From Thermoanaerobaculia bacterium (lineage in GTDB: Bacteria > Acidobacteriota > Thermoanaerobaculia > Multivoradales > JAGPDF01), in the NCBI GenBank assembly GCA_050186295.1, contig JBFWYP010000006.1:65336-129335 (forward strand): DNA of 64,000 bases, given 5' to 3'. The translations under genes and the position numbers were made by a program. Below the pieces are notes generated by a model. That model saw nothing but the letters and a program-made list of their open reading frames with translations, had not been told where the DNA came from and ran no database searches. This document shows, one piece after another, positions 1 through 57,000 of the stretch. Positions within the stretch are counted from its first letter, which is position 1. Every line of letters begins with the position of its first letter.

Positions 1-1491
1 CATCCCAGCGAAGGGACCAAGGGGCGCGCCATCGGCTACGTCTTCCGCGGCCCGGTGAGCCAGCGCGAGGACGGCGAGCTGGTCGGCGGCGAGCCGGATG
101 AGACCGCCTGGAAGCTCGACTGGGAACACACCGCCGAGAAGTTGCCGTTCGGCCTGCGCGGCGTCATCGACATCGAGCACTACAGCGATTTCGAGCTCTT
201 CCGCGATTTCGAACGCGGCGAGAGCCAGAACACCCGCCGCTTCATCTACTCGAACGCCTTCCTCTCCGGCAACTGGGGGGTCCAGTCGGCGACCCTCCTC
301 CTCGACCAGCGCGAGACGTTCCTCGGCGACGGACAGGAGACGGTAACCCAGCGTCAGCTCCCCGAGCTCGACTATCGGCTTCGCGAGCGCAAGCTGGGCG
401 ATCTTCCGCTCTACCTCTCGGTCGCCGGCAACGCCAGCTTCCTGCAGGCCGAGCGTGACGGCTCCTACGACGCGGGCTACGGCCGGTTCGACCTCCAGCC
501 CGAGCTCAAGCTGCCGCTGCGCCCGGCCACCTGGCTCTCGATGGCGCTGACCGCGGGCGGTCGTGCCACCTGGTGGGGCGACACCTTCTCGACGCGCGAG
601 GTCGATCCGGTCACCGGCGTCGCCGAGCAGCGCTGCGGCGATCGTGCCGCCGAGGACGGCGAGATCTACTGCGGCGAGACGCTCACGCGTGTCTATCCGA
701 CGGCGACGTTCGAGATGGTCGGTCCGTCGTTCTCGAAGATCTTCGATCACGGCGGCGACACCTTCGCCAAGTTCAAGCACGTGATCGAGCCGCGGGTCAC
801 CTACGGTTACCTCGGCGATTTCGAGGAGCAGGACCGGGTTCCGCAGTTCGACGAGATCGACATCCTGCGCCCGTCGAATCTCGTCGAGGTGTCGCTCATC
901 AACCGTCTGCTCGCGAAGCCGTCGGACGAGACCCGCGGCGGGGCGTTCGAGATCCTCTCCTTCGAGCTCGCCCAGGCCTACTCTCTCGACGACCAGCAGC
1001 CGCTGCAGAAGTCGCGCGACGGTCAGACGACCTCCTCGGAGAGCTCGATCTTCGCCAAGCTGCGATTCAACCCGTCGAAGGCCTTCTCGCTGCAGGCGCA
1101 GGCCGCCTACAGCACCCTCTTCTCGGGGCTCGATTCGACCTCGATCTCCGGCAACGCCAGGCTGCGGCGCGCCGACCTCGGGCTCACCTGGTTCACGCGC
1201 TACGACGCCGAGCGCAGCGAGACGACTTCCGACCAGGTGCGGCTCTCGTTCGGTCTCGACATCGTGCCGCAGCGGCTGCGCCTCGACGGCCAGATCAACT
1301 ACGACATCGAGACGGCGGAGATCCAGCAGCAGCGCTACTTCCTCAACTACACCTCGCAGTGCTGGAGCGTGCGGGTCGAGGCGCGCGAGTTCACGCGCTC
1401 GCAGATCGTCGAGCGCGACTACCGGATCGCGATCACCTTCAAGAACGTCGGCACCTTCCTCGACATCACCGGCGGCCTCTCCGGCGACTGA
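1..1491 (+). CDS. lptD: Outer-membrane LPS-assembly protein LptD-like, C-terminal part (5'-truncated by window edge)
   Basis: Frame 1 is open from nt 1 with no stop until 1489-1491. The composition is amphipathic and beta-barrel-like and resembles the LptD/OstA C-terminal domain. The call rests on my recollection of the family, not a search. Confidence 0.5.
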   Translation, partial: HPSEGTKGRAIGYVFRGPVSQREDGELVGGEPDETAWKLDWEHTAEKLPFGLRGVIDIEHYSDFELFRDFERGESQNTRRFIYSNAFLSGNWGVQSATLLLDQRETFLGDGQETVTQRQLPELDYRLRERKLGDLPLYLSVAGNASFLQAERDGSYDAGYGRFDLQPELKLPLRPATWLSMALTAGGRATWWGDTFSTREVDPVTGVAEQRCGDRAAEDGEIYCGETLTRVYPTATFEMVGPSFSKIFDHGGDTFAKFKHVIEPRVTYGYLGDFEEQDRVPQFDEIDILRPSNLVEVSLINRLLAKPSDETRGGAFEILSFELAQAYSLDDQQPLQKSRDGQTTSSESSIFAKLRFNPSKAFSLQAQAAYSTLFSGLDSTSISGNARLRRADLGLTWFTRYDAERSETTSDQVRLSFGLDIVPQRLRLDGQINYDIETAEIQQQRYFLNYTSQCWSVRVEAREFTRSQIVERDYRIAITFKNVGTFLDITGGLSGD

Positions 1492-1504
1492 GGCGCCTCC
1501 GGCG

Positions 1505-2362
1505 ATGCGCTATCTGGTCCTCGGCGGGTCGGGAATCGTCGGCCGCGCGGTCGTCGCGGAGGCTGCACGTCGCGGAGCCGACGTCACACCCCGTTCGCGC
1601 GCGGAGACCGACATCACGAGCCGCGGGGAGGTGGCGCGGGCGATCGCCGCGAGCCGGCCCGATCTGGTCGTCAACTGCGCGGCTTTCACCGCGGTCGACC
1701 GCTGCGAGTCGGAGCGGGAGCGGGCGTTCGCGGTGAACGGGGAGGCGGTCGGCGTGGTGGCGGAGGAGACGGCGCGGGCCGGCGCCCGCCTGATCCACCT
1801 CTCGACCGACTACGTCTTCGACGGCGCAGGGTCCGAACCGTACGCGGAGGATCACCCGACGGCACCGCGGTCGGTCTACGGCGCGAGCAAGCTCGCGGGG
1901 GAAGAGCTGGCGCTGGCCCGGAAGGGCAGCCTCGTCGTGCGGACCAGCTGGATCTTCGGGTCGGGCGGGCCCAACTTCGTCGACGCCATCGCCGGCAAGC
2001 TCCGGGCCGGGGAGCGGTCGCTCCGGGTGGTCGCGGACCAGCGCGGCGGACCGACCTACGCCCCGTTTCTGGCGTCCGCCCTGCTGGATCTGGGAGAATG
2101 GGGCGTGGACGGCATCGTCCACTACCAGAATCGACCCGTGGTCAGCTGGTTCGAGCTGGCGGCTTCGATCGCCCGGGAACTGGGTTCCGGGGCCGAGGTC
2201 GTGCCGGTCTCGACTGCCGAGGTGCCGCGGCCGGCCCCCCGGCCCGCCTACTCGGTTCTGTCGGTCGAACGATTCGAGCGCCGCGCGGCGAGGTCCGTCG
2301 AGGCGTGGAGCGAGGGCCTGAAGCGGCACCTCGCGGAGAGAGACAAGGGAGTCACGGAATGA
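1505..2362 (+). CDS. rfbD: dTDP-4-dehydrorhamnose reductase (RmlD family)
   Basis: N-terminal Rossmann motif LVLGGSGIVGRAV. Conserved block STDYVFDG and the overall ~285-aa architecture are typical of RmlD. ATG at 1505. Confidence 0.8.
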   Translation: MRYLVLGGSGIVGRAVVAEAARRGADVTPRSRAETDITSRGEVARAIAASRPDLVVNCAAFTAVDRCESERERAFAVNGEAVGVVAEETARAGARLIHLSTDYVFDGAGSEPYAEDHPTAPRSVYGASKLAGEELALARKGSLVVRTSWIFGSGGPNFVDAIAGKLRAGERSLRVVADQRGGPTYAPFLASALLDLGEWGVDGIVHYQNRPVVSWFELAASIARELGSGAEVVPVSTAEVPRPAPRPAYSVLSVERFERRAARSVEAWSEGLKRHLAERDKGVTE

Positions 2363-3342
2363 AGCGTGTACTGATCACCGGAATCACCGGCTTCGCCGGT
2401 TCGCATCTCGCGGAGTATTTTCTCGCCGAGCGCCCCGAAATCGAGGTCTACGGCACCTATCGCTGGCGCAGCCGGCGCGAGAACATCGAGGGAATCGAGG
2501 AGCGCCTGAACCTCCTGGAGTGCGATCTCTCCGATGCCGTCGCGGTGCGCAAGACGCTCGAAACCTGCCGCCCGGACGCGATCTTCCACCTCGCGGCACA
2601 GAGCTTCGTGCCGTCGTCCTGGGTGGCCCCGCTGCAGACCCTGAACGACAACGTGGCGGGTCAGGCGAACATCTTCGAGGCGGTGCGCTCCCTGGGGCTC
2701 GACCCGGCGATCCAGATCGCCTGCTCGTCCGAGGAGTACGGGCTCGTGCTCCCCGACGAGGTGCCGATCAGGGAGACGAATCCGCTGCGGCCGCTCTCCC
2801 CCTACGCGGTCTCCAAGGTGACCCAGGACTTCCTCGCCTACCAGTACTTCATGAGCTACGGCATCCGGGCGATCCGCACGCGCGGGTTCAACCACACCGG
2901 ACCCCGGCGCGGCGAGGTCTTCGTGACCTCGAACTTCTCGAAGCAGATCGCCTCGATCGAAGCCGGGATCCAGGAGCCGGTCATCCGGGTCGGCAACCTC
3001 GACGCGGTGCGCGACTTCACGGACGTGCGCGACATGGTCCGTGGCTACGTGCTGGCAGTCGAGAAGGGCAAGCCGGGCGAGGTCTACAACCTCGCCTCCG
3101 GCAACGCCATCACCATCCGCGCGCTGCTCGACAAGCTGATCGCGATGGCCAGGGTCGAAGTGAAGGTCGAGACCGACCCGACGCGGCTCCGCCCGTCGGA
3201 CGTCGAGGTCCTGATCGGCGACGCCTCGAAGTTCCGGGCCGACACCGGCTGGGAGCCGAAGATCCCCTTCGACCAGACGCTGAACGACCTCCTCGAGTAC
3301 TGGCGGGAGCGCGTCGCGCGCCGCCTGCCGGCGCCGGCGTAA
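2359..3342 (+). CDS. NAD-dependent sugar-nucleotide epimerase/reductase (GDP-4-keto-6-deoxymannose reductase Rmd-like SDR)
   Basis: GITGFAGSHL Rossmann motif, catalytic YAVSK, and the VGNLDAVRDFTDVRD block typical of Rmd/Gmd-like extended SDRs. The ATG overlaps the rmlD stop (ATGA at 2359-2362). Confidence 0.6.
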   Translation: MKRVLITGITGFAGSHLAEYFLAERPEIEVYGTYRWRSRRENIEGIEERLNLLECDLSDAVAVRKTLETCRPDAIFHLAAQSFVPSSWVAPLQTLNDNVAGQANIFEAVRSLGLDPAIQIACSSEEYGLVLPDEVPIRETNPLRPLSPYAVSKVTQDFLAYQYFMSYGIRAIRTRGFNHTGPRRGEVFVTSNFSKQIASIEAGIQEPVIRVGNLDAVRDFTDVRDMVRGYVLAVEKGKPGEVYNLASGNAITIRALLDKLIAMARVEVKVETDPTRLRPSDVEVLIGDASKFRADTGWEPKIPFDQTLNDLLEYWRERVARRLPAPA

Positions 3343-3358
3343 ACGGATCCCCCGGCCG

Positions 3359-4264
3359 ATGGCCCATCGCGTTCTCGTCACGGGTGCCACCGGATTCGTC
3401 GGACGGCGCCTCGTGGCGCAGCTCGTCCGCTCGGGTCACGCGGTGGGCGGCGTGGCGATCGACGGTGCCGCGCAGATGACCGGGGTCGAATGGTTCGCTG
3501 TCGACGTCCGCGACGCCGGCGCGCTCGTGCGCGTCGTCGACGCGTTCTCACCCGACCGCATCGTCCATCTCGCGGCGCTCTCGCACGTCGGCGAGTCCTG
3601 GCGCCGGATCCCCGACTACTACGCGATCAACGTCGAAGGAGCGGGCAACCTGTTCTCCGCAGCCCGCGGGCGCGCGACGATCTTCATGTCGAGCGCCGAG
3701 GTCTACGGCCTCGTTCCGGATCACGAGCAGCCGATCCGCGAGATTCGCGCGCTCGCGCCGCGGACGCCGTACGCCCTCACCAAGGCGGCCGCCGAACGGA
3801 TGGCGCTCGCCGCCGGCGCCACGGTCGTGCGCTCGTTCAACCTGATCGGGCCGGGCCAGGCGACCAACTTCGCCCTGCCGGACTTCGCGGCACAGCTCGC
3901 CGCCATCGAACGCGGCGAGCGGCCGGCCGAGCTCGCCGTCGGCAATCTCTCCGCACGCCGCGACTTCGTACACGTCGACGACGCGGTCGACGCGCTCGTA
4001 CGGCTGGTGACGCGGCCGCAACCGGGGGAGATCTTCAACCTGGCGAGCGGCGAAGACCGCTCGATCTCGGAGCTGCTCGACAAGATGGTCGAGCTCGCCG
4101 GGATCGAGGTGCGGCGAGTCGAGGACCCGACGCGCCTCCGGCCGGTCGACGTGGCGCGCCTGTGCGGCGACGCGTCCCGTCTGCGGAATCTCGGCTGGGA
4201 GCCGCGCCGCGGCGTCGAGCGGGGCCTCGCGGACGTCCTGGCGGCGGCGCGGGAGAGCGCGTGA
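3359..4264 (+). CDS. NAD-dependent epimerase/dehydratase family protein (extended SDR)
   Basis: VTGATGFVGRRL Rossmann motif, YALTK catalytic dyad, and a VGNLSARRDFVHVDD block paralogous to the preceding gene. Confidence 0.65.
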   Translation: MAHRVLVTGATGFVGRRLVAQLVRSGHAVGGVAIDGAAQMTGVEWFAVDVRDAGALVRVVDAFSPDRIVHLAALSHVGESWRRIPDYYAINVEGAGNLFSAARGRATIFMSSAEVYGLVPDHEQPIREIRALAPRTPYALTKAAAERMALAAGATVVRSFNLIGPGQATNFALPDFAAQLAAIERGERPAELAVGNLSARRDFVHVDDAVDALVRLVTRPQPGEIFNLASGEDRSISELLDKMVELAGIEVRRVEDPTRLRPVDVARLCGDASRLRNLGWEPRRGVERGLADVLAAARESA

Positions 4265-5259
4265 AGATCCTCTTCACCGGGGCGACCGGATTCCTCGGCC
4301 GCCGGACCGTCGAGCGCCTGGCGCCGCATCACCAGCTGCGCCTGCTGCTCCGGCCGACCGCCTCCCGCGAGCGCTTCCCGGCCGGAGTCGAGTTCGTCAC
4401 CGGAGACGTCACCGATCGCGCGAGCGTCGCGGCGGCGACCGCGGGAGTCGACGCCATTGTCCACGCGGCGGCGCTGGTCAAGATCGCCGCGCCGGGGCGC
4501 GAGTTCGATCGCGTCAACATCGGCGGGCTCGAGAACGTCCTGGCGGCAGGCCGGTCCGCCAGCGTGTCGCGCATCCTCTACGTCTCGAGCTTCATCGCCC
4601 TCGGCCCGACCGAGAACGGCCCGGGCGGGGAGCTCGACGAGAGCGCCGCGATCGCCGATCGCCGCTGGATCAACGACTACGAGCGCACCAAGGCGATGGC
4701 CGATCGCCAGGCGCGCTTCGCGATCGAGAACGGCTGGCCGCTCGTGGTGGCCTACCCCGGCGTCATCTACGGACCGGGAGAGCTCACCGAGGGGAACATC
4801 GTCGTGCGCCACCTGCTGGACCTCGCCGGCGGCAAGCTCCCGGCGCTGCTCGGCAGGCCGGAGCGGCGCTGGAGCTACGTCTTCGTCGACGACGTCGCCG
4901 CCGGCCTCGTGGCGGCGCTCGAGCGGGCTCCGGTTGGTGGACGTTATGTACTCGGAGGCGAGAACGTCACCCAGGCGGCGTTCTACGCGCTGGTCGACGA
5001 GCTCGGCGGAATCCGTTCGCCCGCGCGCCGGATGCCGGACGGCGTCGCCCGTCTCGCCGGTGCCGCGATGAAGGGCTGGGCAGCGCTCCGCGGCACGGTG
5101 CCGCAGCTGACGCCGGACCTGGTCGAGATCTATCGTCACGACTGGGCCTACGATTCGAGCCGCGCGGTGCGCGAGCTGGGCTACGCGCCACGTTCGCTCC
5201 GCGACGGTCTCGGTGAGACGCTCGACTGGCTGCGGGAGATCGGTCGATGGCGCAGCTGA
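4261..5259 (+). CDS. NAD-dependent epimerase/dehydratase family protein (HpnA/dihydroflavonol-reductase-like SDR)
   Basis: GTG start at 4261 overlaps the upstream stop (GTGA). N-terminus ILFTGATGFLGRR is a Rossmann motif. The real gene is the C-terminal part of the 3490-5259 ORF. Confidence 0.6.
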   Translation: MKILFTGATGFLGRRTVERLAPHHQLRLLLRPTASRERFPAGVEFVTGDVTDRASVAAATAGVDAIVHAAALVKIAAPGREFDRVNIGGLENVLAAGRSASVSRILYVSSFIALGPTENGPGGELDESAAIADRRWINDYERTKAMADRQARFAIENGWPLVVAYPGVIYGPGELTEGNIVVRHLLDLAGGKLPALLGRPERRWSYVFVDDVAAGLVAALERAPVGGRYVLGGENVTQAAFYALVDELGGIRSPARRMPDGVARLAGAAMKGWAALRGTVPQLTPDLVEIYRHDWAYDSSRAVRELGYAPRSLRDGLGETLDWLREIGRWRS

Positions 5260-6590
5260 CCGCGGGCGAGCTGGGGCGGAAGCTGGTCCACATGGCAGTG
5301 GGCGGGATCGCCTTCGCCGTACGGCCGCTCGGACTCTGGGGCTCGCTCGCCGCCGCCACCGCGGCGATCGTGCACAACCTGTTTCTCTTCCCGCTCTACG
5401 GCGGGCGCCGGCTCTGGCGGGCGCACGAAGCCGAGCGCGGACGGGCCCTGGGCATCGTGCTCTATCCCGTGGCGGTCCTGCTCCTGCTCGTCGCCTTCCA
5501 CGCCCGCCTCGAGGTGGCGGCGGCGGCCTGGGGAATCCTCGCCTTCGGCGACGGCATGGCGAGCCTCGTCGGCATGTCGCTGGGAGGAACGAATCCGCTG
5601 CCCTGGAACGGACGCAAGAGCTGGGTGGGAACCGCGGCCTACACCCTCTTCGGAGGGATCGGCGCCACGCTCCTGCTGGTCTGGACCGCTCCGGGCACCT
5701 ACTCGCTGCCGTTCGCGCTCGCCATCGCGTTCGCGACTGCGCTCGTCGCCGCTCTCCTCGAGTCGCAGGCGCAGGGGCTCGACGACAACCTCGGCGTGCC
5801 ACTGGTCGCCGGGCTGCTGCTCTACTGCCTGACGATGACCGCCGGTCACTGGGGTGTCGTCGCGAGCGGCGGATTCGCCCGTGCCGCCGCGCTCGGAGTC
5901 GCCGTCAACGTCGTCCTCGCGGCGGCGGCCTGGCGGACCGGTGGCGTCGGCCGCGCCGGGGCGATCGTCGGGGTGCTCCTCGGGAGCACGATCTGGGCGT
6001 TCGCCGGCTGGCAGGGCTTCCTCCTGCTCTTCGTCTTCTTCGTTCTCGGGACGGCCGCGACCAAGCTCGGCTACGCGGCCAAGGCGGCCGCCGGGATCGC
6101 GCAGGAGAAGGGGGGGCGACGCGGACCCGGCAACGCCCTTTCCAAGACCTCGGTGCCGGCCGCGGCGGCGCTCTTCGCCGCGACCACCGGGCGCCCGACC
6201 CTCTTCCTCCTGGCGCTCGCCGGCGCCTTCGCGACGGCGGCCGCCGACACCGTCTCCTCGGAGGTCGGGAAGGCCTACGGCCGGCGGACCTTCCTGATCA
6301 CCACCCTGCGGTCCGTTCCGCGCGGTACGGACGGTGCGGTGTCGCTCGAAGGGACCCTGGCAGGCCTCCTGGCGGCGCTCGTCGTCGGGGCCATCGGCGC
6401 GGCGTGCGGGCTCTATCCGGGGAGCGGTGTCGTCGCCGTGGTCGCCGCGGCAATGGTGGCGACCACGGCGGAGAGTGTGGTCGGCGCGACGCTCGAGAAG
6501 CGCGGACTCCTCGACAACGACGCGGTCAACTTCCTCTGCTCGCTGGCCGGAGCGCTGGTCGCCGCCTTCGCGGCGCCGCTGGTCGCATGA
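5247..6590 (+). CDS. Polyprenol kinase-like (dolichol/phytol kinase family) N-terminal domain fused to DUF92 (TMEM19/VTE6-like) integral membrane domain
   Basis: Multi-TM protein. The N-half has the GDGMASLVG...NGRKSWVGT motif of CTP-dependent dolichol/phytol kinases. The C-half has the GGRRG..N...AADTVSSEVG signature of DUF92. It overlaps the upstream gene by 13 nt. Confidence 0.6.
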   Translation: MAQLTAGELGRKLVHMAVGGIAFAVRPLGLWGSLAAATAAIVHNLFLFPLYGGRRLWRAHEAERGRALGIVLYPVAVLLLLVAFHARLEVAAAAWGILAFGDGMASLVGMSLGGTNPLPWNGRKSWVGTAAYTLFGGIGATLLLVWTAPGTYSLPFALAIAFATALVAALLESQAQGLDDNLGVPLVAGLLLYCLTMTAGHWGVVASGGFARAAALGVAVNVVLAAAAWRTGGVGRAGAIVGVLLGSTIWAFAGWQGFLLLFVFFVLGTAATKLGYAAKAAAGIAQEKGGRRGPGNALSKTSVPAAAALFAATTGRPTLFLLALAGAFATAAADTVSSEVGKAYGRRTFLITTLRSVPRGTDGAVSLEGTLAGLLAALVVGAIGAACGLYPGSGVVAVVAAAMVATTAESVVGATLEKRGLLDNDAVNFLCSLAGALVAAFAAPLVA

Positions 6591-8161
6591 AGGGACGAAG
6601 CGCGAAGGAACAGAAGCCGGCGGGGGGCGAGACGTCCAGCCGGGCGCTCGACCTCCTGGCGGCCTGGGGGCCGGCGGCCGCGGTCCTCGTCCTGCACACG
6701 ATCTATGCGACCACCTTCGGCATCTTCCGCGACGAGCTCTACTACCTCTCCTGCGCCCGGCGCCTGGCCTGGGGTTACGTCGATCACCCGCCGCTCGTCG
6801 CCTGGCTGACCGCCGCCTGGACTGCGCTCTTCGGGAGCGGGCTCGCCACGCTGCGCTTCCTGCCGGCGCTGGCGGTGGCGGCGACGACCCGGGTCGTCGC
6901 TTCGACGGCGCGCGCCTGCGGTGGCGGGCGGTTCGCGTCGGCGCTCGCCGGGCTCGCCTTCGGCCTCGCGCCGATCGTGCTCGGCCTCGGCTCGGTCCTG
7001 TCGATGAACGCCTTCGACCTGCTCTTCTGGGCGATCCTGATGCGGCTCGTCGTGGCGCTCCTCGCCGGTGCGGACGAACGGCACTGGCTGACCTTCGGTG
7101 CGGTCGCCGGTGTCGGCCTGCTGAACAAGGTGAGCGTGCTCTTCGCCGGCTTCGGAATCGTCTGCGGGCTCGCCCTCGCGCGACGCTGGCAGATCCTGAA
7201 GAGCCGCTGGTTCTGGCTCGGCGGAGTCGTCGCCTTCGCGATCTTCCTGCCGCACCTCGTCTGGCAGCAGATCCACGGCTGGCCGACGCTCGAGTTCATG
7301 GAGAACGCCCGGAACTTCAAGAACGCCGACCTCGCGACCGCGGACTTCCTGCGCAAACAGCTCCTCAACACCGGCCCGGTGAACTGTCTCGTCTGGCTCC
7401 CCGGTCTCGCGGGGCTCTTCTTCCTCCGCGACTTCCGTCGTTTCCGCGCCTTCGGCTGGGCCTACCTCGCGATCCTCGCGCTGCTGCTCTCCACGGCCTC
7501 GAAGCCGTACTACCTGGCGCCGGCCTATGCGGTGCTCTTCGCCGCGGGCGCCGTGGCGATCGAGCGGTCGACGGCGCGGTGGCGCGGCAGGACGGCGATC
7601 CGCGCGGCGTTCGTGGCCCTCCTCGTGCTGCTCTCCCTGGCCGTCGCGCCGCTCGCCCGGCCGATGCTGCCGGTCGAGAGCTACCTGCGTTACGCGGCCC
7701 GCTTCGGCGAGAAGCCGGGGACGGACGAGAAGAAGGAGGTCGGGCGGCTGAAGCAGTTCTACGCCGACATGCAGGAGTGGCACGGACTCGCCGAATCGGT
7801 CGGGAGGGCGGCGGATCGGCTGTCACCCACGGAGCGCCGCGAGACCTGCGTCTTCGCCGAGAACTACGGCGAGGCCGGTGCGGTCGAGCGCTGGGCCGCC
7901 GAGCTCGACCTGCCGCCGGCGATCTCGGGACACAACAGCTGGTTCCTCTGGGGGCCGGGAGAGTGCCTCGGGAAGCCGACCCTGCTGGTCATCGCACGCG
8001 ACCGGGAGCGGCTCGACAAACTGTTCGCGAGCGTCGAACCGGGCGCCGAGTTCCACTGCCGGGACTGCATGCCGTACGAGAACGGACTCACGGTCTGGAT
8101 CGCGCGCGAGCCGCGGGTCGACCTCGAAGCACTCTGGCCGTCGATCAAGAACTTCAGTTGA
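6587..8161 (+). CDS. GT-C fold glycosyltransferase (ArnT/PMT-like, GT83/GT39 family)
   Basis: Polytopic membrane protein with the first-loop motif FRDELYYLSCARRLAWGYVDHPPL (RDE..Y, as in ArnT/PMT). Its ATG overlaps the upstream stop (ATGA at 6587-6590). Confidence 0.7.
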   Translation: MKGRSAKEQKPAGGETSSRALDLLAAWGPAAAVLVLHTIYATTFGIFRDELYYLSCARRLAWGYVDHPPLVAWLTAAWTALFGSGLATLRFLPALAVAATTRVVASTARACGGGRFASALAGLAFGLAPIVLGLGSVLSMNAFDLLFWAILMRLVVALLAGADERHWLTFGAVAGVGLLNKVSVLFAGFGIVCGLALARRWQILKSRWFWLGGVVAFAIFLPHLVWQQIHGWPTLEFMENARNFKNADLATADFLRKQLLNTGPVNCLVWLPGLAGLFFLRDFRRFRAFGWAYLAILALLLSTASKPYYLAPAYAVLFAAGAVAIERSTARWRGRTAIRAAFVALLVLLSLAVAPLARPMLPVESYLRYAARFGEKPGTDEKKEVGRLKQFYADMQEWHGLAESVGRAADRLSPTERRETCVFAENYGEAGAVERWAAELDLPPAISGHNSWFLWGPGECLGKPTLLVIARDRERLDKLFASVEPGAEFHCRDCMPYENGLTVWIAREPRVDLEALWPSIKNFS

Positions 8162-8189
8162 ACGGGTAGACTCCGGACGATCCACTCCG

Positions 8190-9197
8190 ATGAAGAAATT
8201 CGACCTCTACGTGCAGCTCTCGCGGCCGTTCACCCTGCTGCCGCCGCTCCTCGGCATCATCTCCGGCGCGATCTGCGCCTGGGGGTCGGTGCACAATCCG
8301 GATCCGGCGCGCCATCTCTCGCTCTCGGTGCTCGCCACCGTCGCGCTGGGATCGCTCTGCGCCTCGTTCCTCAACGCCGCGTCGAACGCGATCAACCAGA
8401 TCACCGATCTCGACATCGACCGCCTGAACAAGCCGAACCGGCCGCTGGTCACGGGTGCGCTCTCGCTCCGCGAGGGCTGGACGTTCACCTGGATCTTCTA
8501 CGCCCTGGCGATCGTTCCGACCTGGGCGGTGGTCGTCTTTCCGTACACCCACTTCGGCGCCAAGATCGTCGCTCCGCTCCCCTGGCACGAGACCTTCTTC
8601 ATCTACCTCGCCGGCCTGGTCTTCACGCTGATCTACTCGGTGCCGTCGTGGGGCCGGACCAAGGCGCGCGGCATGCTCGCGAACTGGACCATCGCCATTC
8701 CGCGCGGCTGTCTCCTCAAGGTGGCCGGCTGGGCGATGGTGGCGCGGATCGGCCACTGGGAGCCGTGGGCGATCGGCGGCATCTTCATGCTCTTCCTGGT
8801 CGGCGCCGCCTCGACCAAGGACTTCGCCGACATGAAGGGGGACGCCGCCGGCGGCTGCAGGACGCTGCCGATCCTGCACGGGGCGAAGAAGGCGGCCTGG
8901 ATCATCGCTCCGTTCTTCGTGCTGCCGTGGATGCTGATTCCGCTCTTCGCCTGGCTCCCGGATCCGCAGGCGCCAGCCGGCGCCGCGCACGCCATCCTCA
9001 CCGGCAACCGCCTGGCGCTCACCGGACTGGGCGCGCTGCTCACCGCCTGGGGGATCTACACCGTCTACCTCATCCTGCGCGATCCGGAAGAGCTCACCCG
9101 CTCCGAGAATCACCCCAGCTGGCGGCAGATGTACCTGATGATGATGGCCGCCCAGATCGGCTTCGCGGTCGCCTATCTGATCCCGCACGGTTCCTGA
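8190..9197 (+). CDS. UbiA-family polyprenyl(phospho)transferase
   Basis: Asp-rich motif NAINQITDLDIDRLNKPNRPLVTG (N...D...D plus R.PL..G) and about 8 TM segments. Confidence 0.75.
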   Translation: MKKFDLYVQLSRPFTLLPPLLGIISGAICAWGSVHNPDPARHLSLSVLATVALGSLCASFLNAASNAINQITDLDIDRLNKPNRPLVTGALSLREGWTFTWIFYALAIVPTWAVVVFPYTHFGAKIVAPLPWHETFFIYLAGLVFTLIYSVPSWGRTKARGMLANWTIAIPRGCLLKVAGWAMVARIGHWEPWAIGGIFMLFLVGAASTKDFADMKGDAAGGCRTLPILHGAKKAAWIIAPFFVLPWMLIPLFAWLPDPQAPAGAAHAILTGNRLALTGLGALLTAWGIYTVYLILRDPEELTRSENHPSWRQMYLMMMAAQIGFAVAYLIPHGS

Positions 9198-9199
9198 GG

Positions 9200-9646
9200 A
9201 TGGGCGCCGATCCGGCCGCGTTCCACGTCGTCGACTACGTGCGCTGGAGCGACGTCGACGCGGCGGGGATCCTCTGCTACGGCGCCTACGTGCGCTTCTT
9301 CGAGGTCGCCGAGACCGAGATCTTCCGCGCCGCGGGCCTGCCCTACGGCAAGGTGTTCGAAGAGCTCGGATTCTGGTTGCCGCGCAAGTCGCTCTCCTTT
9401 GAGTTCGACGCCCCGGCCCTGCTCGACGACCGCCTCGAAGTGGCGATCTGGGTGGCCCGGTTCGGCCGCACCTCACTCCGCTTCGGTTTCGAGATCGCCA
9501 AGCTCGACGAGAGCGGGGCGCGTGCGACGGTCACCGCCCGCGGTCAGGTAGCGATGGTGGCGGTGGACCGGGAGCACCTGCGACCGATCCCGCTGCCGCC
9601 GCGCCTCGTCGATGGCCTGCGACGGTTCGCGGCTGCGGAATCCTGA
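9200..9646 (+). CDS. Hotdog-fold acyl-CoA thioesterase (YbgC/4-hydroxybenzoyl-CoA thioesterase-like)
   Basis: VDYVRWSDVDAAGILCYGAYVRFFEVAETEIF is the canonical 4HBT-fold N-terminus with a catalytic Asp. It starts 3 nt after the UbiA stop. Confidence 0.65.
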   Translation: MGADPAAFHVVDYVRWSDVDAAGILCYGAYVRFFEVAETEIFRAAGLPYGKVFEELGFWLPRKSLSFEFDAPALLDDRLEVAIWVARFGRTSLRFGFEIAKLDESGARATVTARGQVAMVAVDREHLRPIPLPPRLVDGLRRFAAAES

Positions 9647-9704: not shown

Positions 9705-10763
9705 ATGCCGGCCGGACGCTCCGTATTCGACCTCGCCCGCGAGCTCGGTCACGAGCAGCTCGTGGTGGTCCAGCGGCCCGAAGTCGGCCTGCGGGCGGTC
9801 ATCGCGATCCACGACACGACGTTCGGGCCGGCGATCGGCGGCACCCGGATGCGGCGCTATCCCTCGTTCGACGTGGCGGTCGCCGACGCCCTCCGGCTGT
9901 CGCAGGCGATGACCGCGAAGGCGGTGTTCGCCGGCATGCGGTGCGGCGGCGGCAAGGCGGTCATCGACGGCGACCCCGGCGAGGAGAAGAGTCCGGAGCT
10001 CCTCGCCGCCTACGGCAGTGCCGTGGAGGAGCTCGGCGGGAGGTTCGCCACCGGCTGCGACATGGGGATCGACGTCGCCGACCTGGCGATCCTGGCGCGG
10101 GCGACGAGGTTCGTCGGCTGTACGCCGGGAAATGCTGCGGTCGACGCCTCGGACCTCACGGCGCTCGGCCTGTTCGCGGCGATGCGGGCCGTCGCGGCAC
10201 GGCTCGGGCGGCCTCTCGAAGGCCTCCGGGTCGCCCTGCAGGGGGTGGGTGAGGTGGGGCGTCGCCTGGCGCTCCGGCTCGCCGCCGCCGGCTGCCGACT
10301 GGTCGTTTCGGACGCGCTACCCGAGCGCGCCGCGGCGGTCGCCGGAGAGACCGGCGCCCGGGTGGTCGAGCCCGGGCGGATCTTCGACGAGGCGACGGAC
10401 CTGTTCTCGCCGAATGCCGCCGGCGAGGCGATCGACGACGGCGTCGCGGCGCGGCTCGACTGCCGCGCGGTCGTCGGCGCGGCGAACAATCCTCTGGCGG
10501 ACGAACGGGCGGGCGAGATCCTCGCGCAGCGCGGGATCGTCTACGCGCCCGACTTCGTGGTCAACGCCGGCGGACTGCTCTCGGTCCTCTTCGAACGCGG
10601 GGAGCTCGACGAAGCCGGCATCGTCGAGCGGGTCGAGCGGATCGGCGCCGACCTCGACCGGCTTCTCGACGAGGCCGAGCGCGCGGCCGAGCCGCCCTTC
10701 CGGACCGCCGGCCGCATCGTCGCCGCGCGTCTCGCCGCGGAGCGCTCCGCGCGACGCCGTTGA
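9705..10763 (+). CDS. Glu/Leu/Phe/Val dehydrogenase family protein (leucine dehydrogenase-like)
   Basis: The GGGKAVI signature lysine motif and a C-terminal NAD Rossmann segment GVGEVGRRLA. Confidence 0.7.
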   Translation: MPAGRSVFDLARELGHEQLVVVQRPEVGLRAVIAIHDTTFGPAIGGTRMRRYPSFDVAVADALRLSQAMTAKAVFAGMRCGGGKAVIDGDPGEEKSPELLAAYGSAVEELGGRFATGCDMGIDVADLAILARATRFVGCTPGNAAVDASDLTALGLFAAMRAVAARLGRPLEGLRVALQGVGEVGRRLALRLAAAGCRLVVSDALPERAAAVAGETGARVVEPGRIFDEATDLFSPNAAGEAIDDGVAARLDCRAVVGAANNPLADERAGEILAQRGIVYAPDFVVNAGGLLSVLFERGELDEAGIVERVERIGADLDRLLDEAERAAEPPFRTAGRIVAARLAAERSARRR

Positions 10764-12544
10764 ACGGCGTTCCGCAGCACGCCCTGCTGCGCGGCCCGGA
10801 GGAGGCCGGCGGCTGGCTCGAGTTCGCGGCGCCCGTCGGGGGCGGCTCCGCCGGGAGTCCGGACGAGGTTCCCGCCCTCCTGTCGCGGGCCGAGCAGGCG
10901 ACGCGGGACGGACTCTGGGCGGTGGGCTGGGTGGGCTACGAGGCGGCTCCCGGCTTCGATCGCGCCCTGCCGACCCGTCCGCCGTCCGGGCCCGTCGCCG
11001 CGTTCGGATTCTTCCGTCCGCCCGAACGGCTCGAGCTCGCGGCAGAGGAGGCGTCCGTCGCCGTCACGGGAGCTCTCCGGCCCGTCCTCGACGCCGCCGG
11101 ACACGCGCGGGCGGTGGCCGCGATCCGCGCCGGGATCGCGGCGGGAGAGACCTACCAGGTCAACCTGACCTTTCCCCTCATCGGCCGCCTTGAGGTCGAA
11201 CCGGAAACCGCCTTTCGTCGTCTGGCTGCGGCGGCCGCGAGCCCCCTGGCCGCGTTCCTCGACCTCGGCGGCGAGGCGATCCTGTCGCTCTCGCCGGAGC
11301 TCTTCTTCGACCTCGACGGGGAGCGCATCGTCATGCGTCCGATGAAGGGGACGCGGCCCCGCGGCCGCTACACGGAGGAGGACCGGGCGCTCCGCCGGGA
11401 GCTCGCCGGGTCGGCGAAGGACCGCGCCGAGAACCTGATGATCGTCGACATGGTGCGCAACGACCTCGGACGCATCTCGCGCCCGGGGTCGGTGATCGCC
11501 ACGAGCCTCAACGACCTCGAGCGCTATCCGACCGTCTGGCAGATGACCTCGACGGTGGAGGGGCGCACGACCGCGCCGATGGCGGAGATCTTCGGCGCGC
11601 TCTTTCCGTGCGCATCGATCACCGGAGCGCCGAAGCCGCGGGCAATGGAGTTCATCGCCCGCCTCGAGCCCCAGCCGCGCGGCATCTACTGCGGTGCCAT
11701 CGGCTGGCTGGCGCCGATATCGTCGAAATCGCCGATGCCGCTGTCGGCAGGGGAGGGCCGCCGGGCCCGCTTCTCCGTCGCGATCCGCACCGCCGCGGTC
11801 GACCGGAAGAGCGGTGCGCTGCGCTACGGCGTGGGAAGCGGCATCGTCTGGGACTCCGATCCGGTGGCGGAGTACGACGAGTGCCTGGTCAAGGCGCGCG
11901 GTTTCGAGGCGGAGAGCGAGCCCGCGGCGCTCCTCGAGACGATGCGCTGGGCTCCGTGGTCCGGAGTCCGGCGCTTCTCCCGGCATCTCGCCCGCCTCGC
12001 CGATTCGGCCGACTACTTCGGCCTGCCGTTCGACGAAGGGCGCGTGCGGGCGGCGGTGGCGGAGGTCGTGGCGACGCTGCCGCCGGCGGTGCATCGCCTG
12101 CGCCTGCGGCTCGACCGGAGCGGCGCGCCGTCCCTGGAGGCCGAGCCGCTGGAGCGCGCGGCCCGGAGCTGGCGGGCCGTCCTCGCCGCCGGGCCTGTCG
12201 ACGCCTCCTCGCCGCTCCTGTTCCACAAGACGGTCCGCCGTGAGGTCTACGACCGTACGCTGGCCGAGGCGCGGAGCCGCGGGGCCGACGAGGCGATCCT
12301 CTGGAACGGGCGCGGCGAGCTCACCGAGGGCACGCGGACGAATCTGGCGCTGCGGCTCGACGGCCGCTGGCTGACACCGTCGCGGAGTTCGGGCCTCCTC
12401 GCCGGCGTGCTGCGGGGCGAGCTGCTCGATCGGGGGCGGATCCGCGAGGCGGTCCTGGGGGTCGATGATCTGGCCCGGGCCGAAGCGGTGGCCCTCTTCA
12501 GCGCGCTCCGCGGCTTCCTGCGGGTCGAACTGCTCCCGTCCTAG
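10760..12544 (+). CDS. pabB: Aminodeoxychorismate synthase component I fused to class-IV aminotransferase (ADC-lyase-like): PabB::PabC
   Basis: Chorismate-binding block MKGTRPRG...AENLMIVDMVRNDLGRI...PTVWQM, and a C-terminal ~200 aa with the EGTRTNLAL class-IV aminotransferase fold. Only a TTG start is available at 10760, overlapping the upstream stop. Confidence 0.65.
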   Translation: MNGVPQHALLRGPEEAGGWLEFAAPVGGGSAGSPDEVPALLSRAEQATRDGLWAVGWVGYEAAPGFDRALPTRPPSGPVAAFGFFRPPERLELAAEEASVAVTGALRPVLDAAGHARAVAAIRAGIAAGETYQVNLTFPLIGRLEVEPETAFRRLAAAAASPLAAFLDLGGEAILSLSPELFFDLDGERIVMRPMKGTRPRGRYTEEDRALRRELAGSAKDRAENLMIVDMVRNDLGRISRPGSVIATSLNDLERYPTVWQMTSTVEGRTTAPMAEIFGALFPCASITGAPKPRAMEFIARLEPQPRGIYCGAIGWLAPISSKSPMPLSAGEGRRARFSVAIRTAAVDRKSGALRYGVGSGIVWDSDPVAEYDECLVKARGFEAESEPAALLETMRWAPWSGVRRFSRHLARLADSADYFGLPFDEGRVRAAVAEVVATLPPAVHRLRLRLDRSGAPSLEAEPLERAARSWRAVLAAGPVDASSPLLFHKTVRREVYDRTLAEARSRGADEAILWNGRGELTEGTRTNLALRLDGRWLTPSRSSGLLAGVLRGELLDRGRIREAVLGVDDLARAEAVALFSALRGFLRVELLPS

Positions 12545-13104
12545 GGTCGGGCGGCGTCGCGGGTCCGCCGGAGCTCCTGGAACAGCTCGTCGACGGCGGG
12601 GAAGTCGGAGGGCGGGAAGTTGGCCGGGTTGCTCCAGAACTCGGCCAGACCGCGGTGACCCCAGCGCTCGTAGACGCTCACCTTGATCATCAGCTGGAGC
12701 TTGTCGCAGGCCTTCACGAACCGCGCCTCCACGCTCTCGCCGGCGTCGTACTCGCGGTAGCGCTCGAGGGTCGCGGGATCGGCGGGCGCCAGGATGTCGG
12801 CCGCGGCGCGGCGCTCGGCCTCGTGCTTCGCTCCCGGTGGGAGGTAGGCGCCCGCGGTCCGCGGCAGGTCGCCGATCCGGAGCTCCGCGAGGTCGTGCAC
12901 CAGGGCGAGCTCGATCGCCCGGGTCCGGTCGACCGACGGCTCGCGCGAGGCCAGGAGCCAGACCAGCAGGGCGAGGTGGTACGAGTGTTCGGCGATCGAT
13001 TCGCAGTCCGAGACGCCGCGCAGGAAGTAGCCGCTGCGCGGAATGCGGTCCAGCGTCTGGAGCTCGAGCAGGAGCTCGAGGAGGTTTCCGTTGGCGCCCT
13101 TCAT
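12541..13104 (-). CDS. HD-domain phosphohydrolase (YfbR-like 5'-deoxynucleotidase family)
   Basis: HD motif HSYHLALLV and the downstream D-L-A-E acidic metal-binding residues. It converges on the pabBC end by 4 bp. Confidence 0.65.
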   Translation of the reverse strand: MKGANGNLLELLLELQTLDRIPRSGYFLRGVSDCESIAEHSYHLALLVWLLASREPSVDRTRAIELALVHDLAELRIGDLPRTAGAYLPPGAKHEAERRAAADILAPADPATLERYREYDAGESVEARFVKACDKLQLMIKVSVYERWGHRGLAEFWSNPANFPPSDFPAVDELFQELRRTRDAARP

Positions 13105-14187: not shown

Positions 14188-15830
<1,643 letters not shown>

Positions 15831-15834
<4 letters not shown>

Positions 15835-20585: not shown

Positions 20586-25074
<4,489 letters not shown>

Positions 25075-25100
25075 GTCGGGCTTCACGGATCCCCTGTCAA

Positions 25101-25751
25101 TTAGCGATGGCAGGTCGAGCAGCTGACCTTGCTCTGTACGTTGTGGGCTTCGGCCCAGATCGCCTGCTGCGCCGCGAGGTCGGCCGGGGGCTGCCAGAAG
25201 ACGTTGGTGACCTCGGAGGCCGGCCGCAGGTTCTTCACCGGATCGCGGTGGCAGTCGAGACACCAGCTCATCGTCAGCGGCTGACCCTGGTACATGAGCG
25301 GCATCTTGTCGACGGGGCCGTGGCAGGTGGTGCAGGCCACGCCCTTGGCGACATGGATCGAGTGGTTGAAGTAGACGAAGTCGGGCAGGTCGTTGACCCG
25401 GTTCCAGCGGATCGGCTTGCCTTCGCGGTAGCTCGCCCGGATCGGCTCGAGCAGCTGGGCGTTCGTCCACAGCTGGTTGTGGCAGTTCATGCAGGTCTGG
25501 GTCGGCGGGATCCCCGCCGACGCCTGGCTCTCGACCGCGGTGTGGCAGTAGCGGCAGTCGATTCCGATCTGGGCCACGTGGTGATCGTGGGAGAACGGCA
25601 CCGGCTGTTCGAGAACGATCCCCTGACGCGTCACGTAGCCGGAATGGGCGACGCGCCAGAGCGCGAAGCCTCCCGCCGCGGCGAGGAAGAGGGCCACGAA
25701 GATCGACGCCTTCGCAAAGGCGTTCGCACTGCGAGAGAAGATCTGCGCCAT
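25101..25751 (-). CDS. actA: Alternative complex III subunit ActA (membrane-anchored pentaheme cytochrome c)
   Basis: An N-terminal TM anchor followed by five CxxCH motifs (CRYCH, CMNCH, CTTCH, CLDCH, CSTCH). Confidence 0.8.
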   Translation of the reverse strand: MAQIFSRSANAFAKASIFVALFLAAAGGFALWRVAHSGYVTRQGIVLEQPVPFSHDHHVAQIGIDCRYCHTAVESQASAGIPPTQTCMNCHNQLWTNAQLLEPIRASYREGKPIRWNRVNDLPDFVYFNHSIHVAKGVACTTCHGPVDKMPLMYQGQPLTMSWCLDCHRDPVKNLRPASEVTNVFWQPPADLAAQQAIWAEAHNVQSKVSCSTCHR

Positions 25752-28453: not shown

Positions 28454-28602
28454 TTCGGCTCCTTGGAGTTCCCGGTCGGGGGTGACGTTCGCGGGCGATC
28501 CCGGGTGTGGTCTCGGCGTCGGACTCGGCGCCCGCATGCGAGGGTGCGATTGTAACCGAGCCGGTTGCGGAAGCACGACGAGCGGGGTCTAAGATCTCCG
28601 AC

Positions 28603-31600
28603 ATGCGATCCGCGCTCCGCCTCTCGAGGATTCTCCACCGGTTCGGTTCCTCCCGTTCGTGCGCGGCAGGGGTCGCCTTTGGTCTCGTCGTCGTCGTCGT
28701 CGCCGGCTGCCAGGCGGGTGCCGCGACGATCGTCGAAAACGGAAAGAAGAGCGCGATGTCCGAAGCCGGCCCAGAGACCTGGAAGGAGATCGATCGCCTG
28801 GTCGGCGAGCAGAAGCTCGAGGCGGCGGCGAAGCTGGTCGATGCCCGGGTCGCTGCGGCGGACGAAGCCCGGAACGACGACGAGCTCGCCCGGGCACTGG
28901 TGCGGCGGGCGCAGCTCCGCATCGCCCTCGGCGGCTTCGCGACCGCGGTCGAGGCGCTGCGCGCGAGCCGCTGGCCGGAGAAACCGCTCGCGCATGCCGC
29001 GGTCGAGCTCTACTACGCGCACGCCCTGCTCGACTATCTCGAGGCCTACGACTGGGAGATCCGGCAGCGCGAGCTCGTCGTCTCGGGCGAGACTCTCGAC
29101 CTCGAGCGCTGGACCGCGGCGCAGCTCGCGGACGAAGCCGAGCGGGCGTTCCTCGACGTCTGGGAGAGCCGCGAGGCGCTCGGCGCCGTCGCAGTCGACG
29201 ACTTCCCGTACCTGCGCCCGAACGACTTCCCCGAAGGGATCCGCGACACGCTGCGCGACGCGGTCTCCTACCTCTTCGTCGAGCGGATGCTCGGCAACTC
29301 GCGCTTCTGGTCGGCCGCCGAATCGAACGAGGCCTGGCAACTCGACCTCGAGAACCTGATCGCCGACCGCCCCGTCGTGCCCGCGACGGGGCCGGTCCAC
29401 CCGCTGCTCCGTGCCGCCGTCGTGCTCGCCGACCTCGAGGCGTGGCACCGCGGCAGGAGGGAGCTCGGGGCCGAGCTCCAGGCGCGGATCGCGCGGCAGG
29501 CGACGATCGCCGATCACCGCGAGGGCGCCACGGACCGCGGGCGCCTCCGCGCGGAGCTCGAGCGGCGGCTGCCGCGCTACCGCGACGACCCGTGGTGGGC
29601 CGTCGGCGTCGCCGACCTCGCCGGCGACATCGATCGCGACGACCCGGCGCCGGATCACCGGATCCGCGCGCGCGAGCTCACGCTCCGGGGCGAGCAGGCC
29701 TATCCCGGGAGCTACGGCGCCGACCGCTGCCGGCAGCTGCGGGAGGAGATCGAGGCGCCCGACTTCTCGGTCCAGGCGATGTCCTCGGACGGACCGCGGG
29801 AGCGGTCGTTCGAGGTGACGCACCGCAATCTGCCGCGTCTCCACTTCCGTGCCTTCCGTGTCGATCCCGACGCCGAGCTCGGGCGGGCGGAGTTCCGGGG
29901 GGTCTTCCCCAACGACGCGCGCGAGATCGAGCGCCGGCTGGCCGACAGACCGGTCGCCGAGTGGACCGCCGAGCTGCCGCCGACGCCGGACTACTCGTCG
30001 CACCGCACGTTCGACACCCCGCCCCTCGCCGAAGCGGGCCTCTACTTCGTCGTCGCCTCCGCCGACCGGTCGTTCCGGGCGCGGGGCAACCGGCGCGTGG
30101 CGGTTCCGTTCCTGGTTTCGGACCTCGTCCTCCTCGAAGGGGCGGCGAACGAGAATCCCTGGGAGGTCCGCGTCGTGTCGGGAGGAAGCGGCGCGGCGAT
30201 CGCCGGCGCCGAGGTCGCGCTCTACCGCAACACCTGGCGCCGGGCCCCCGAGCGGATCGCGACGGAGAAGAGCGGTGCGGACGGCCGCGCGCGGCTCGCG
30301 GCGGAGACCGGCCGCGACGCGACGAACTTCCTCGTGGTGGCGCGGCGCGGGGGCGACATCGCCTTCTCGCAGCGCTACCTCTACGGCCGGCGGAGCGAGC
30401 CTTCCGAGCAGACCGCCGCCCTCGTCTTCACCGACCGCGCGATCTACCGGCCACTGCAGAAGGTCGAATGGAAGATCCTGGGCTACCGCAGCGGTCCGGC
30501 GCGCGGGCGGCTGGTACCGTCGCCGCGGATGCCGGCGACGGTCTCGCTCCTCGACCCGAACGGCGAGGAGGTGCAGGAGCTCGCCGTCACCACGAACGAG
30601 TTCGGGACGGCGGCGGGCGCGTTCGAGATTCCGGCCGGGCGCCTCCTCGGGCTCTGGACGGTCCGCACGACGGCGAACGGCTCGGCGTCGATCCGTGTGG
30701 AGGAGTACAAACGGCCCACGTTCGAGGTCGAGATCGGCGAGCCGGACTCGGCGCTGCGGCTCAACCGTGTCGCCGAGCTCGTCGGGAACGCGCGCTACTA
30801 CTTCGGCCTGCCGGTGGCGGGCGGCAGGGTCGCCTGGCGCGTGACGCGGACGCCCGAGTGGCCGGTCTGGTGGCGGTTCTGGGCGCCGCCCGGCGGCGCC
30901 ACCGAAGCGCAGACGATCGCCAGCGGTGTGGCTCCGCTGTCCGACGACGGCACCTTCCGCGTCCGCTTCACACCCGCCGCCGACGAGCGCGAGAAGACGA
31001 GCGGCGCGACCTATCGCTACCGCCTCGAGGCGGACGTCACCGACGACGGCGGCGAGACCCGGAGCGGCGACCGTACGTTCCGCCTCGGCTGGGTGGCGGT
31101 CGAGGCGACGCTCGAGAAGGAGGATCCGCTCTTCGTCGCCGGTGAGGCGATGACCGTCGTCGCGACGCGCCGCGATCTCGACGGAGTCGCGCGTCCGGGC
31201 AGCGGGAGCTTCCGGCTCGTCGCGCTCGACGTGCCGGCGAGAGCGCCGCTCCCGGCCGCGCTCCCCGTCCGTCCCGCGCACGCGGCGGCGAAGGACGATC
31301 CGTACGCGACGCCCGGCGACGCGCTCCGGCCGCGCTGGTCGGGCGGCACGACCGTCGCCGACACGCTCGCCTTCTACGCCGACGGCCGCGAAGTACGGCG
31401 CGGCGAGCTGGCGCACGATGCGCGGGGGCGCTCGACGATCGACCTGGCGGGCGTCCCGGCCGGTGCCTATCGCCTGCGGTACGCGACGACCGACCCGTTC
31501 GGCGAGACCTTCGAGAACCGTCTCGACTTCGTCGTCGCCGCGACCGCAGGCGGAGGCGCGAAACTCGCGCTGCCGGCGGCGATCCTCTTCGATCGCGGCG

Positions 31601-54140: not shown

Positions 54141-54305
54141 CTGGTCAGGGCTCCGTTCGCCTCGGTGAAGCCCGCAGGACTCCCGCTTCGGCTCGCATCG
54201 GCTCCGTCGATGCGGAGCGCTCCGGCAGTATAGACGGCGGAGAAGCCGGATCGACCCTGGTACACGACTTGCTCGGCAGTCCGGTGACATGAGCGCCGAT
54301 CCGTC

Positions 54306-56999: not shown

Positions 57000-57000
57000 C

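Follow-up and report, generated by a model that had tools for sequence, protein, structure and literature searches.

Salvage of phytol for tocopherol formation proceeds through VTE5, VTE6 and then the UbiA-family prenyltransferase VTE2. The phytol kinase VTE5 and the farnesol kinase FOLK are CTP-dependent prenol kinases of COG0170, with Plasmodium PolK in the same functional class, and VTE6 is a member of DUF92 (COG1836, TIGR00297, PF01940), having TMEM19 as its human homolog. Gene clustering or fusion of COG1836 with phytol kinase was reportedly used in about 2011–2015, by vom Dorp in 2015 and Seaver in 2014, to predict VTE6. Biochemically, prenol salvage has been described in archaea, bacteria and animals as two CTP-dependent steps, the first by a prenol kinase and the second by a prenyl-phosphate kinase, and its genes are known only from plants (VTE5, FOLK and VTE6) and Plasmodium (PMC10849223, PMC13022625). 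Both papers cite Ohnuma 1996 for activities in Sulfolobus. Gerdes 2011 lists COG1836 as 'phytol-phosphate metabolism' (PMC3223725). Here we describe a gene in a stretch of 64,000 nucleotides from a Thermoanaerobaculia bacterium (the window; contig JBFWYP010000006.1, positions 65,336 to 129,335, of assembly GCA_050186295.1), encoding a single polypeptide in which relatives of VTE5 and VTE6 are joined. As this fusion almost always sits between genes for a short-chain dehydrogenase/reductase (SDR) and a UbiA-family protein, the SDR–fusion–UbiA locus is a good candidate for a bacterial prenol-activation pathway.

The fusion gene forms one open reading frame (ORF) of 447 codons that is free of stops and begins at the first in-frame start following a stop, with GGGAGA placed 8 nucleotides 5′ of the ATG, in a window having a G+C content of about 70%. 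At its 5′ end the gene shares 13 nucleotides with the preceding SDR gene, so that its ATG lies before the SDR stop, and at its 3′ end the TGA and the ATG of the following gene run together as ATGA. An NCBI protein, 'DUF92 domain-containing protein [Thermoanaerobaculia bacterium]', derived from a metagenome-assembled genome (MAG), is 100% identical to the fusion, and all of the top 120 database relatives (59–83% identity, nearly all of 440–470 residues) were likewise encoded as a single ORF of approximately 447 residues. For a wider view we scanned GTDB with one genome per species, whereby 232 species with a relative were found; 80 loci were retained for synteny analysis and these matched the fusion over residues ~1–440. 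The kinase motifs (GDGMASLVG at residues 101–109 and GRKSW at 122–126) and the DUF92 motifs (GGRRG at 289–293 and AADTVSSEVG at 332–341) that the earlier note had read from the DNA were all present, and their core residues (D102, G103, A105, G109, K124, R291, R292, D334, T335, S338 and E339) were invariant among 61 relatives. An AlphaFold2 model, built with an alignment of relatives as input, showed one compact, all-helical, two-domain membrane protein (predicted local distance difference test, pLDDT, 91.9; predicted template modelling score, pTM, 0.91). Searching the PDB with the full model using Foldseek gave no significant match, with CdsA appearing at a probability of only 0.30, and a family-profile sequence search of the PDB gave no relevant match. 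Because the uninterrupted ORF recurs in relatives, the motifs are invariant and the model is compact, the objection that two separate genes were split by an overlooked frameshift is excluded, and the fusion gene is intact.

An exhaustive HMMER search with a profile of the N-terminal half, at a threshold of E ≤ 1e-3, matched 4,829 cluster representatives, with 277 of these at E ≤ 1e-30. Among the best 150 representatives together with the query, 96 of 151 sequences had the N–C fusion and 55 had the N-domain only (many of them being fragments), with the reverse domain order seen in none of the 151; by Pfam, 71 of 100 carried DUF92. All of the 80 retained loci came from uncultured MAGs, mostly labelled Thermoanaerobaculia, Holophagales or Acidobacteriota, and the window's own host is a soil-type Acidobacteriota genome. 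The earlier note had held that a natural VTE5::VTE6-type fusion would be notable and had proposed looking for it in other genomes; the fusion is indeed natural and it recurs, but it is less singular than the note implied, since a large subfamily has it as its main architecture. Neither domain is new as a family, and public data contain many copies of the fused gene, which NCBI names after its DUF92 half only.

Some assemblies gave a different picture. In L091, a long-read assembly, the kinase, DUF92 and UbiA were found as three consecutive overlapping genes (positions 6001–8263) followed by a radical-SAM gene, and in L092 the kinase and DUF92 halves were separate genes (positions 2169–3451). 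Since adjoining SDR genes are truncated there as well, sequencing frameshifts are as likely an explanation as genuine split genes. Two cluster representatives presenting SDR::kinase fusions (P0122 and P0214), which if genuine would have linked SDR and kinase, contained Arg/Ala/Pro-rich stretches read in the wrong frame and were discarded as gene-calling or frameshift artefacts of high-GC contigs. Such cases could be taken to suggest that the fusion studied here is itself an error of assembly or frame, merging two genes. That explanation is effectively excluded, considering that the single ORF occurs in hundreds of independent assemblies, that the fused form dominates the 151 subfamily sequences and that the AlphaFold2 model is both confident and compact.

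With regards to the N-terminal half, taken in isolation it matched no model of Pfam or NCBIfam, and PF01148 (CTP_transf_1) gave no match to the fusion protein even at E ≤ 10, and thus none at its gathering threshold, while weakly touching 5 of 61 close relatives (best E 1.5e-5). PF01148 is rarely recorded on plant phytol kinases, with only 2 of 120 listed proteins carrying it as a precomputed domain and most having no precomputed Pfam domain at all (P0271–P0390), and the missing Pfam match is therefore normal for the family and a poor discriminator. Pfam coverage of the phytol kinase enzyme family is poor. The 120 plant proteins were retrieved using an Arabidopsis VTE5 sequence solely as bait; all were real proteins named 'phytol kinase' at their source, and one matched the bait with 100% identity across 86% of its length. 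The N-half profile matched every one of them, at 47–82 bits (median 75), covering approximately positions 4–190 of the 214 profile positions with E ~1e-18 for a search space of 1.8 billion sequences. The reciprocal plant phytol kinase profile gave 40.9 bits on fusion residues 72–190, and HHalign aligned the two families over 183 columns with 99.7% probability and E 7e-27. The motifs RKxVH, GDGxAxxxGxxxG, PxNxxKSWxG and ESxP..DDNxxVP were common to both. As judged in alignments of 61 and 25 relatives, invariant residues of the N-domain included E8, R11, K12, H15, the GDG at 101–103, A105, G109, G113, the LPWN at 118–121, K124, G128, E172, S173, the DDN at 179–181, V184 and P185. Labels given by JGI to relatives were 'dolichol kinase' or 'dolichol kinase/uncharacterized membrane protein', one having a COG0170 tag.

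We also considered whether the N-half could instead be CdsA, which the earlier note had named among the findings that would refute its reading. N-half profiles gave −4.2 and −0.4 bits against Escherichia coli CdsA, with a best domain of 7.0 bits, and the alignment stopped before the C-terminal signature region of CdsA, a region having no counterpart in the N-half; such scores are insignificant for kinship with CdsA/CarS, the CDP-alcohol-forming cytidylyltransferases of the PF01148 superfamily. By profile comparison the N-half is thus a clear homolog of VTE5-type phytol kinases and not CdsA-like, in agreement with its prediction as a phytol/dolichol-kinase-like domain. It resembles VTE5 and FOLK across the full domain, in its motifs, in being a polytopic membrane protein and, with regards to most plant members, in lacking a precomputed PF01148 match. 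It differs in belonging to a non-photosynthetic bacterium, in having neither a transit peptide nor an N-terminal extension, and in being covalently joined to a second, predicted kinase domain.

That second domain is, by its family match, a DUF92 domain, as had been predicted. PF01940 matched it with E 4.5e-53 and 180.6 bits (cut-off 27.5) over residues 220–436, end to end at profile positions 2–251 of 251, and matched all of the 61 relatives. Assignment of the two halves by hidden Markov models thereby succeeded for the C-half through PF01940, but not for the N-half through CTP_transf_1, nor with TIGR00297, which gave the C-half 191 bits and thus fell under its trusted cut-off of 205.85. Residues K279, R291, R292, D334, T335, S338, E339, E409, D423 and N428 were among those invariant in the C-domain of the 61 relatives. 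Being a strong PF01940 member with the GGRRG and (A)DTxSSExG motifs, the C-half resembles, through its family models, VTE6, the plant and cyanobacterial phytyl-phosphate kinase; it differs in its TIGR00297 score and in being fused rather than free-standing. The two halves of the fusion may also be related to each other. When residues 10–198 were compared with residues 216–445 using HHalign (P 2.5e-4, probability 43%), the motifs of the halves fell in register (D102/D334, KSW-G/VS-EG-T, ES172/ES409 and DDN/LDN), and the C-half compared with plant phytol kinases gave P 0.045. This is a hint that DUF92 may be related to the COG0170 kinase fold as a very distant paralog, and that the halves may be ancient paralogs of one CTP-dependent lipid-kinase fold.

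The gene order around the fusion was compared using the 80 species loci, with denominators given as the evaluable loci (75, 66, 61 or 59). An SDR gene was located directly upstream of the fusion in 73 of 75 loci, with the HpnA-like type as best match in 66, and a UbiA gene was located directly downstream in 52 of 66, with 9 more found within 6 kb downstream in non-adjacent position. The functional link between fusion and UbiA that the earlier note had drawn was hereby strengthened; the HpnA-like SDR, having a stop that overlaps the start of the fusion gene, is the most conserved partner and had gone unmentioned in that note. The PMT_2 glycosyltransferase gene that separates fusion and UbiA in the window (Table 1) adjoins the fusion in 7 of 66 loci, and since UbiA directly follows the fusion in most related species, PMT_2 is a recent subclade-specific insertion. 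Within the array UbiA ranked with the most strongly conserved genes (median identity 71%, compared with 72.5% for the dehydratase and 60% for the fusion). In more distant relatives at 32–36% identity (L089 and L090) the HpnA-like SDR still overlaps the start of the fusion and UbiA is absent, and at 28% identity (L088) no partner gene was kept. Upstream, lptD heads a tightly packed, co-directional nucleotide-sugar array running into the SDR–fusion–UbiA module (window positions 1–5259; loci L005–L086). Within 8 kb upstream, lptD was found in 56, rmlD in 58 and the dehydratase in 57 of 61 loci, and the lptD linkage was kept in relatives at ~46–48% identity (L085 and L086). A scan for terminators and promoters gave no intergenic signals. 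Observed directly were which domains the protein contains, that the fusion is intact and that the gene order is conserved.

Table 1. Genes and domains of the locus, with positions in the window.
Feature	Position	Strand	Basis or remark
Fusion gene, 447 aa: N-terminal VTE5/phytol-kinase-like and C-terminal DUF92 (VTE6-family) domains	5247–6590	+	ORF translation, PF01940, profile comparisons, AlphaFold2
N-domain, residues 1–215, COG0170/phytol-kinase-like	5247–5891	+	profile scores, HHalign
C-domain, residues 220–436, DUF92/TIGR00297-like	5904–6554	+	PF01940, TIGR00297
3′ part of lptD (lipopolysaccharide-assembly outer-membrane protein)	1–1491	+	PF04453 E 8.2e-21; full gene in L087
RmlD	1505–2362	+	co-directional nucleotide-sugar SDR
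4,6-Dehydratase-like	2359–3342	+	co-directional nucleotide-sugar SDR
Epimerase/dehydratase-like SDR	3359–4264	+	co-directional nucleotide-sugar SDR
HpnA-like extended SDR, 332 aa	4261–5259	+	TIGR03466
PMT_2 (GT-C fold, ArnT/PMT-like) glycosyltransferase, 524 aa	6587–8161	+	PF13231 E 8.9e-22
UbiA-family prenyltransferase, 335 aa	8190–9197	+	Pfam UbiA PF01040 E 6.6e-29
Hotdog thioesterase, YbgC-like	~9239–9646	+	
ELFV-family amino-acid dehydrogenase	9705–10763	+	closest to ScyB, a tryptophan dehydrogenase, at 253 bits (cut-off 600)
PabB::PabC (aminodeoxychorismate synthase + lyase)	10760–12544	+	start overlapped by ELFV dehydrogenase gene
HD-domain gene	12541–13104	−	

The UbiA protein contains both Asp-rich motifs, NQITDLDIDRLNKPNRPL and KDFADMKGDAAGGCRTLP. 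Its best NCBIfam matches were PRK12884 (archaeal-type prenyltransferase, 95.7 bits), ChlG (85.6 bits) and DGGGPS (68 bits), all below their cut-offs, and its closest solved structures were 6m31, a DGGGPS (50 bits), and 9sau, a chlorophyll a synthase (48 bits), with the structure of 4-hydroxybenzoate octaprenyltransferase at 34.5 bits. The equivalog model for homogentisate phytyltransferase (VTE2, NF009525) gave 53.8 bits against a cut-off of 226, and decaprenyl-phosphate phosphoribosyltransferase was absent from the 19 NCBIfam matches (E ≤ 1e-3) as well as from the PDB matches (E ≤ 1). Judged from these scores, the protein appears closest to the O-prenylating DGGGP-synthase and chlorophyll-synthase types and not to the 4-hydroxybenzoate or homogentisate prenyltransferases. 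DGGGP synthase and chlorophyll synthase prenylate an oxygen atom using C20 geranylgeranyl or phytyl diphosphate. The archaeal DGGGP synthase and ChlG are the closest solved and modelled relatives of this UbiA and share both Asp-rich motifs, but it scored far under their equivalog cut-offs, and neither GGGP synthase nor chlorophyll genes were noticed in the neighbourhood of the fusion. The HpnA-like SDR matched TIGR03466 (HpnA) with 191 bits, below the cut-off, followed by SdmB (127 bits), OleD (94 bits) and a thioester-reductase domain (74 bits); this set of hopanoid, sterol-demethylation, OleD and thioester-reductase models leans, without being decisive, to lipid over nucleotide-sugar substrates. 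Its best solved relative was 3wj7, listed as 'putative oxidoreductase' only, which may be the aldehyde-reducing Gox2253 and is given no weight here. The PMT_2 protein had no NCBIfam or PDB sequence match.

On balance we lean to the view that the fusion is a bifunctional CTP-dependent isoprenoid-alcohol and isoprenyl-phosphate kinase supplying the adjacent UbiA. By analogy with the plant enzymes, the N-domain, as an integral-membrane lipid kinase, would phosphorylate a free isoprenoid alcohol to its monophosphate, whereupon the DUF92 domain would add a second phosphate to give an isoprenyl diphosphate, probably of the C20 class, which the co-operonic DGGGPS/ChlG-like UbiA would consume within the membrane. 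The translationally coupled HpnA-like SDR probably works on this lipid as well, for instance by converting an isoprenoid aldehyde into the alcohol on which the N-domain then acts. We infer the two kinase activities, along with the identity of the nucleotide donor, the length of the chain, the role of the SDR and the acceptor of UbiA; the catalytic statements derive from the plant enzymes. The conservation of lptD and of nucleotide-sugar neighbours suggests an envelope isoprenoid (glyco)lipid as the end product. The order of functions corresponds to that of VTE5, VTE6 and VTE2 in phytol salvage, found here as a fusion and an adjacent UbiA gene, but this UbiA is no homogentisate phytyltransferase ortholog and its other partners are nucleotide-sugar genes and an SDR. 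Nothing further of tocopherol synthesis was seen among the genes neighbouring the fusion.

The same genes could also be arranged differently, as a dedicated biosynthetic route passing through a free lipid alcohol instead of a salvage pathway. The HpnA-like SDR would then produce an alcohol, isoprenoid or otherwise long-chain, for the fusion to convert into its diphosphate, and UbiA would link the lipid by way of oxygen to a head group derived from a sugar or from glycerol. The result would be an isoprenoid lipid, ether- or phospho-linked and so far undescribed, in the outer envelope of Acidobacteriota. Such a route would account for why the linkage to lptD and the nucleotide-sugar genes is conserved, and the module would be widespread in Thermoanaerobaculia and Holophagales; we consider it unlikely all the same. 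A somewhat better chance, if still a minor one, goes to what is the main rival of the bifunctional kinase, namely maintenance of a carrier lipid for envelope glycan or lipopolysaccharide. There the N-domain would serve as a dolichol kinase re-phosphorylating a polyprenol such as undecaprenol, with the polyprenyl phosphate as sugar carrier for the upstream nucleotide-sugar enzymes and, in this subclade, for the downstream PMT_2, and with DUF92 and UbiA being accessory in making or remodelling the carrier. GT-C family enzymes use polyprenyl-phosphate-sugar donors, and in the window one such enzyme follows directly after the fusion with an ATGA overlap. Also in line with a carrier are the lptD, RmlA-like, RmlD, 4,6-dehydratase and further SDR genes found upstream in 56–58 of 61 loci, the similar lptD/nucleotide-sugar context of the distant relatives L085, L086 and L089, and the 'dolichol kinase' labels of JGI. 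However, PMT_2 is adjacent in only those 7 loci, the operon contains no GT2-type polyprenyl-phosphate glycosyltransferase and UbiA, lacking any match to decaprenyl-phosphate phosphoribosyltransferase at E ≤ 1e-3, resembles the diphosphate-using DGGGPS and ChlG. The N-half, moreover, scores far better against phytol kinases (the direct comparison covering phytol kinases and CdsA), and a recycling role leaves the strictly fused second kinase domain unexplained.

A different chemistry altogether, either cytidylyl transfer to a CDP-lipid in the manner of CdsA and CarS or a role of DUF92 as phosphatase, transporter or regulatory partner, seems improbable to us, given that E. coli CdsA drew scores of −4 to 7 bits, and given the missing signature region, in place of which the N-half ends in the ES..DDN..VP of phytol kinases, and the full-length homology to phytol kinases of an assayed family. 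Least probable among the functional readings, and only a very slight possibility, is the route proposed in the earlier note, in which salvaged prenols would feed aromatic prenylation, tocopherol-like or derived from p-aminobenzoate (PABA) or 4-hydroxybenzoate, together with the hotdog thioesterase and PabB::PabC. The genes named were all present, and in the window they are co-directional, with gaps of at most 58 nucleotides or overlaps and no intergenic terminator-like site. Within 8 kb downstream, however, the thioesterase was found in 2, PabB::PabC in 13 and the dehydrogenase in 12 of 59 loci; all three are confined to the close subclade of the window, where dehydrogenase and PabB::PabC recur as a pair. 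The thioesterase is YbgC-like and PabB::PabC belongs to ordinary folate-precursor biosynthesis, and UbiA scores lower for 4-hydroxybenzoate octaprenyltransferase and homogentisate phytyltransferase than for DGGGPS and ChlG. The link to thioesterase, dehydrogenase and PabB::PabC found no support, and this route is largely refuted by synteny, with the type of UbiA also speaking against it.

The SDR–fusion–UbiA operon in non-phototrophic Acidobacteriota, as well as the biochemistry of any bacterial member, appears to be undescribed. A natural version on one polypeptide, from an organism that is not phototrophic, would allow both kinase steps to be studied in a compact system. It would lend independent "Rosetta-stone" support to the function of DUF92, to which human TMEM19 belongs, and would offer a handy part for supplying engineered isoprenoid pathways with exogenous prenols. 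That it is so regularly paired with an SDR and a putatively O-prenylating UbiA points to an undescribed envelope lipid in a widespread uncultured lineage of soil and sediment.

Among the long ORFs scanned in the rest of the window no isoprenoid-pathway genes were seen. These ORFs encode a haem-copper oxidase subunit I (14188–15834, − strand), a large 4Fe-4S dicluster protein (21976–25470, −), a bacterial alpha-2-macroglobulin of 2065 residues (28507–34704, +), a sulfatase fused to long TPR arrays (37020–39782, +) and an HD-domain protein of 1322 residues (53139–57107, −).

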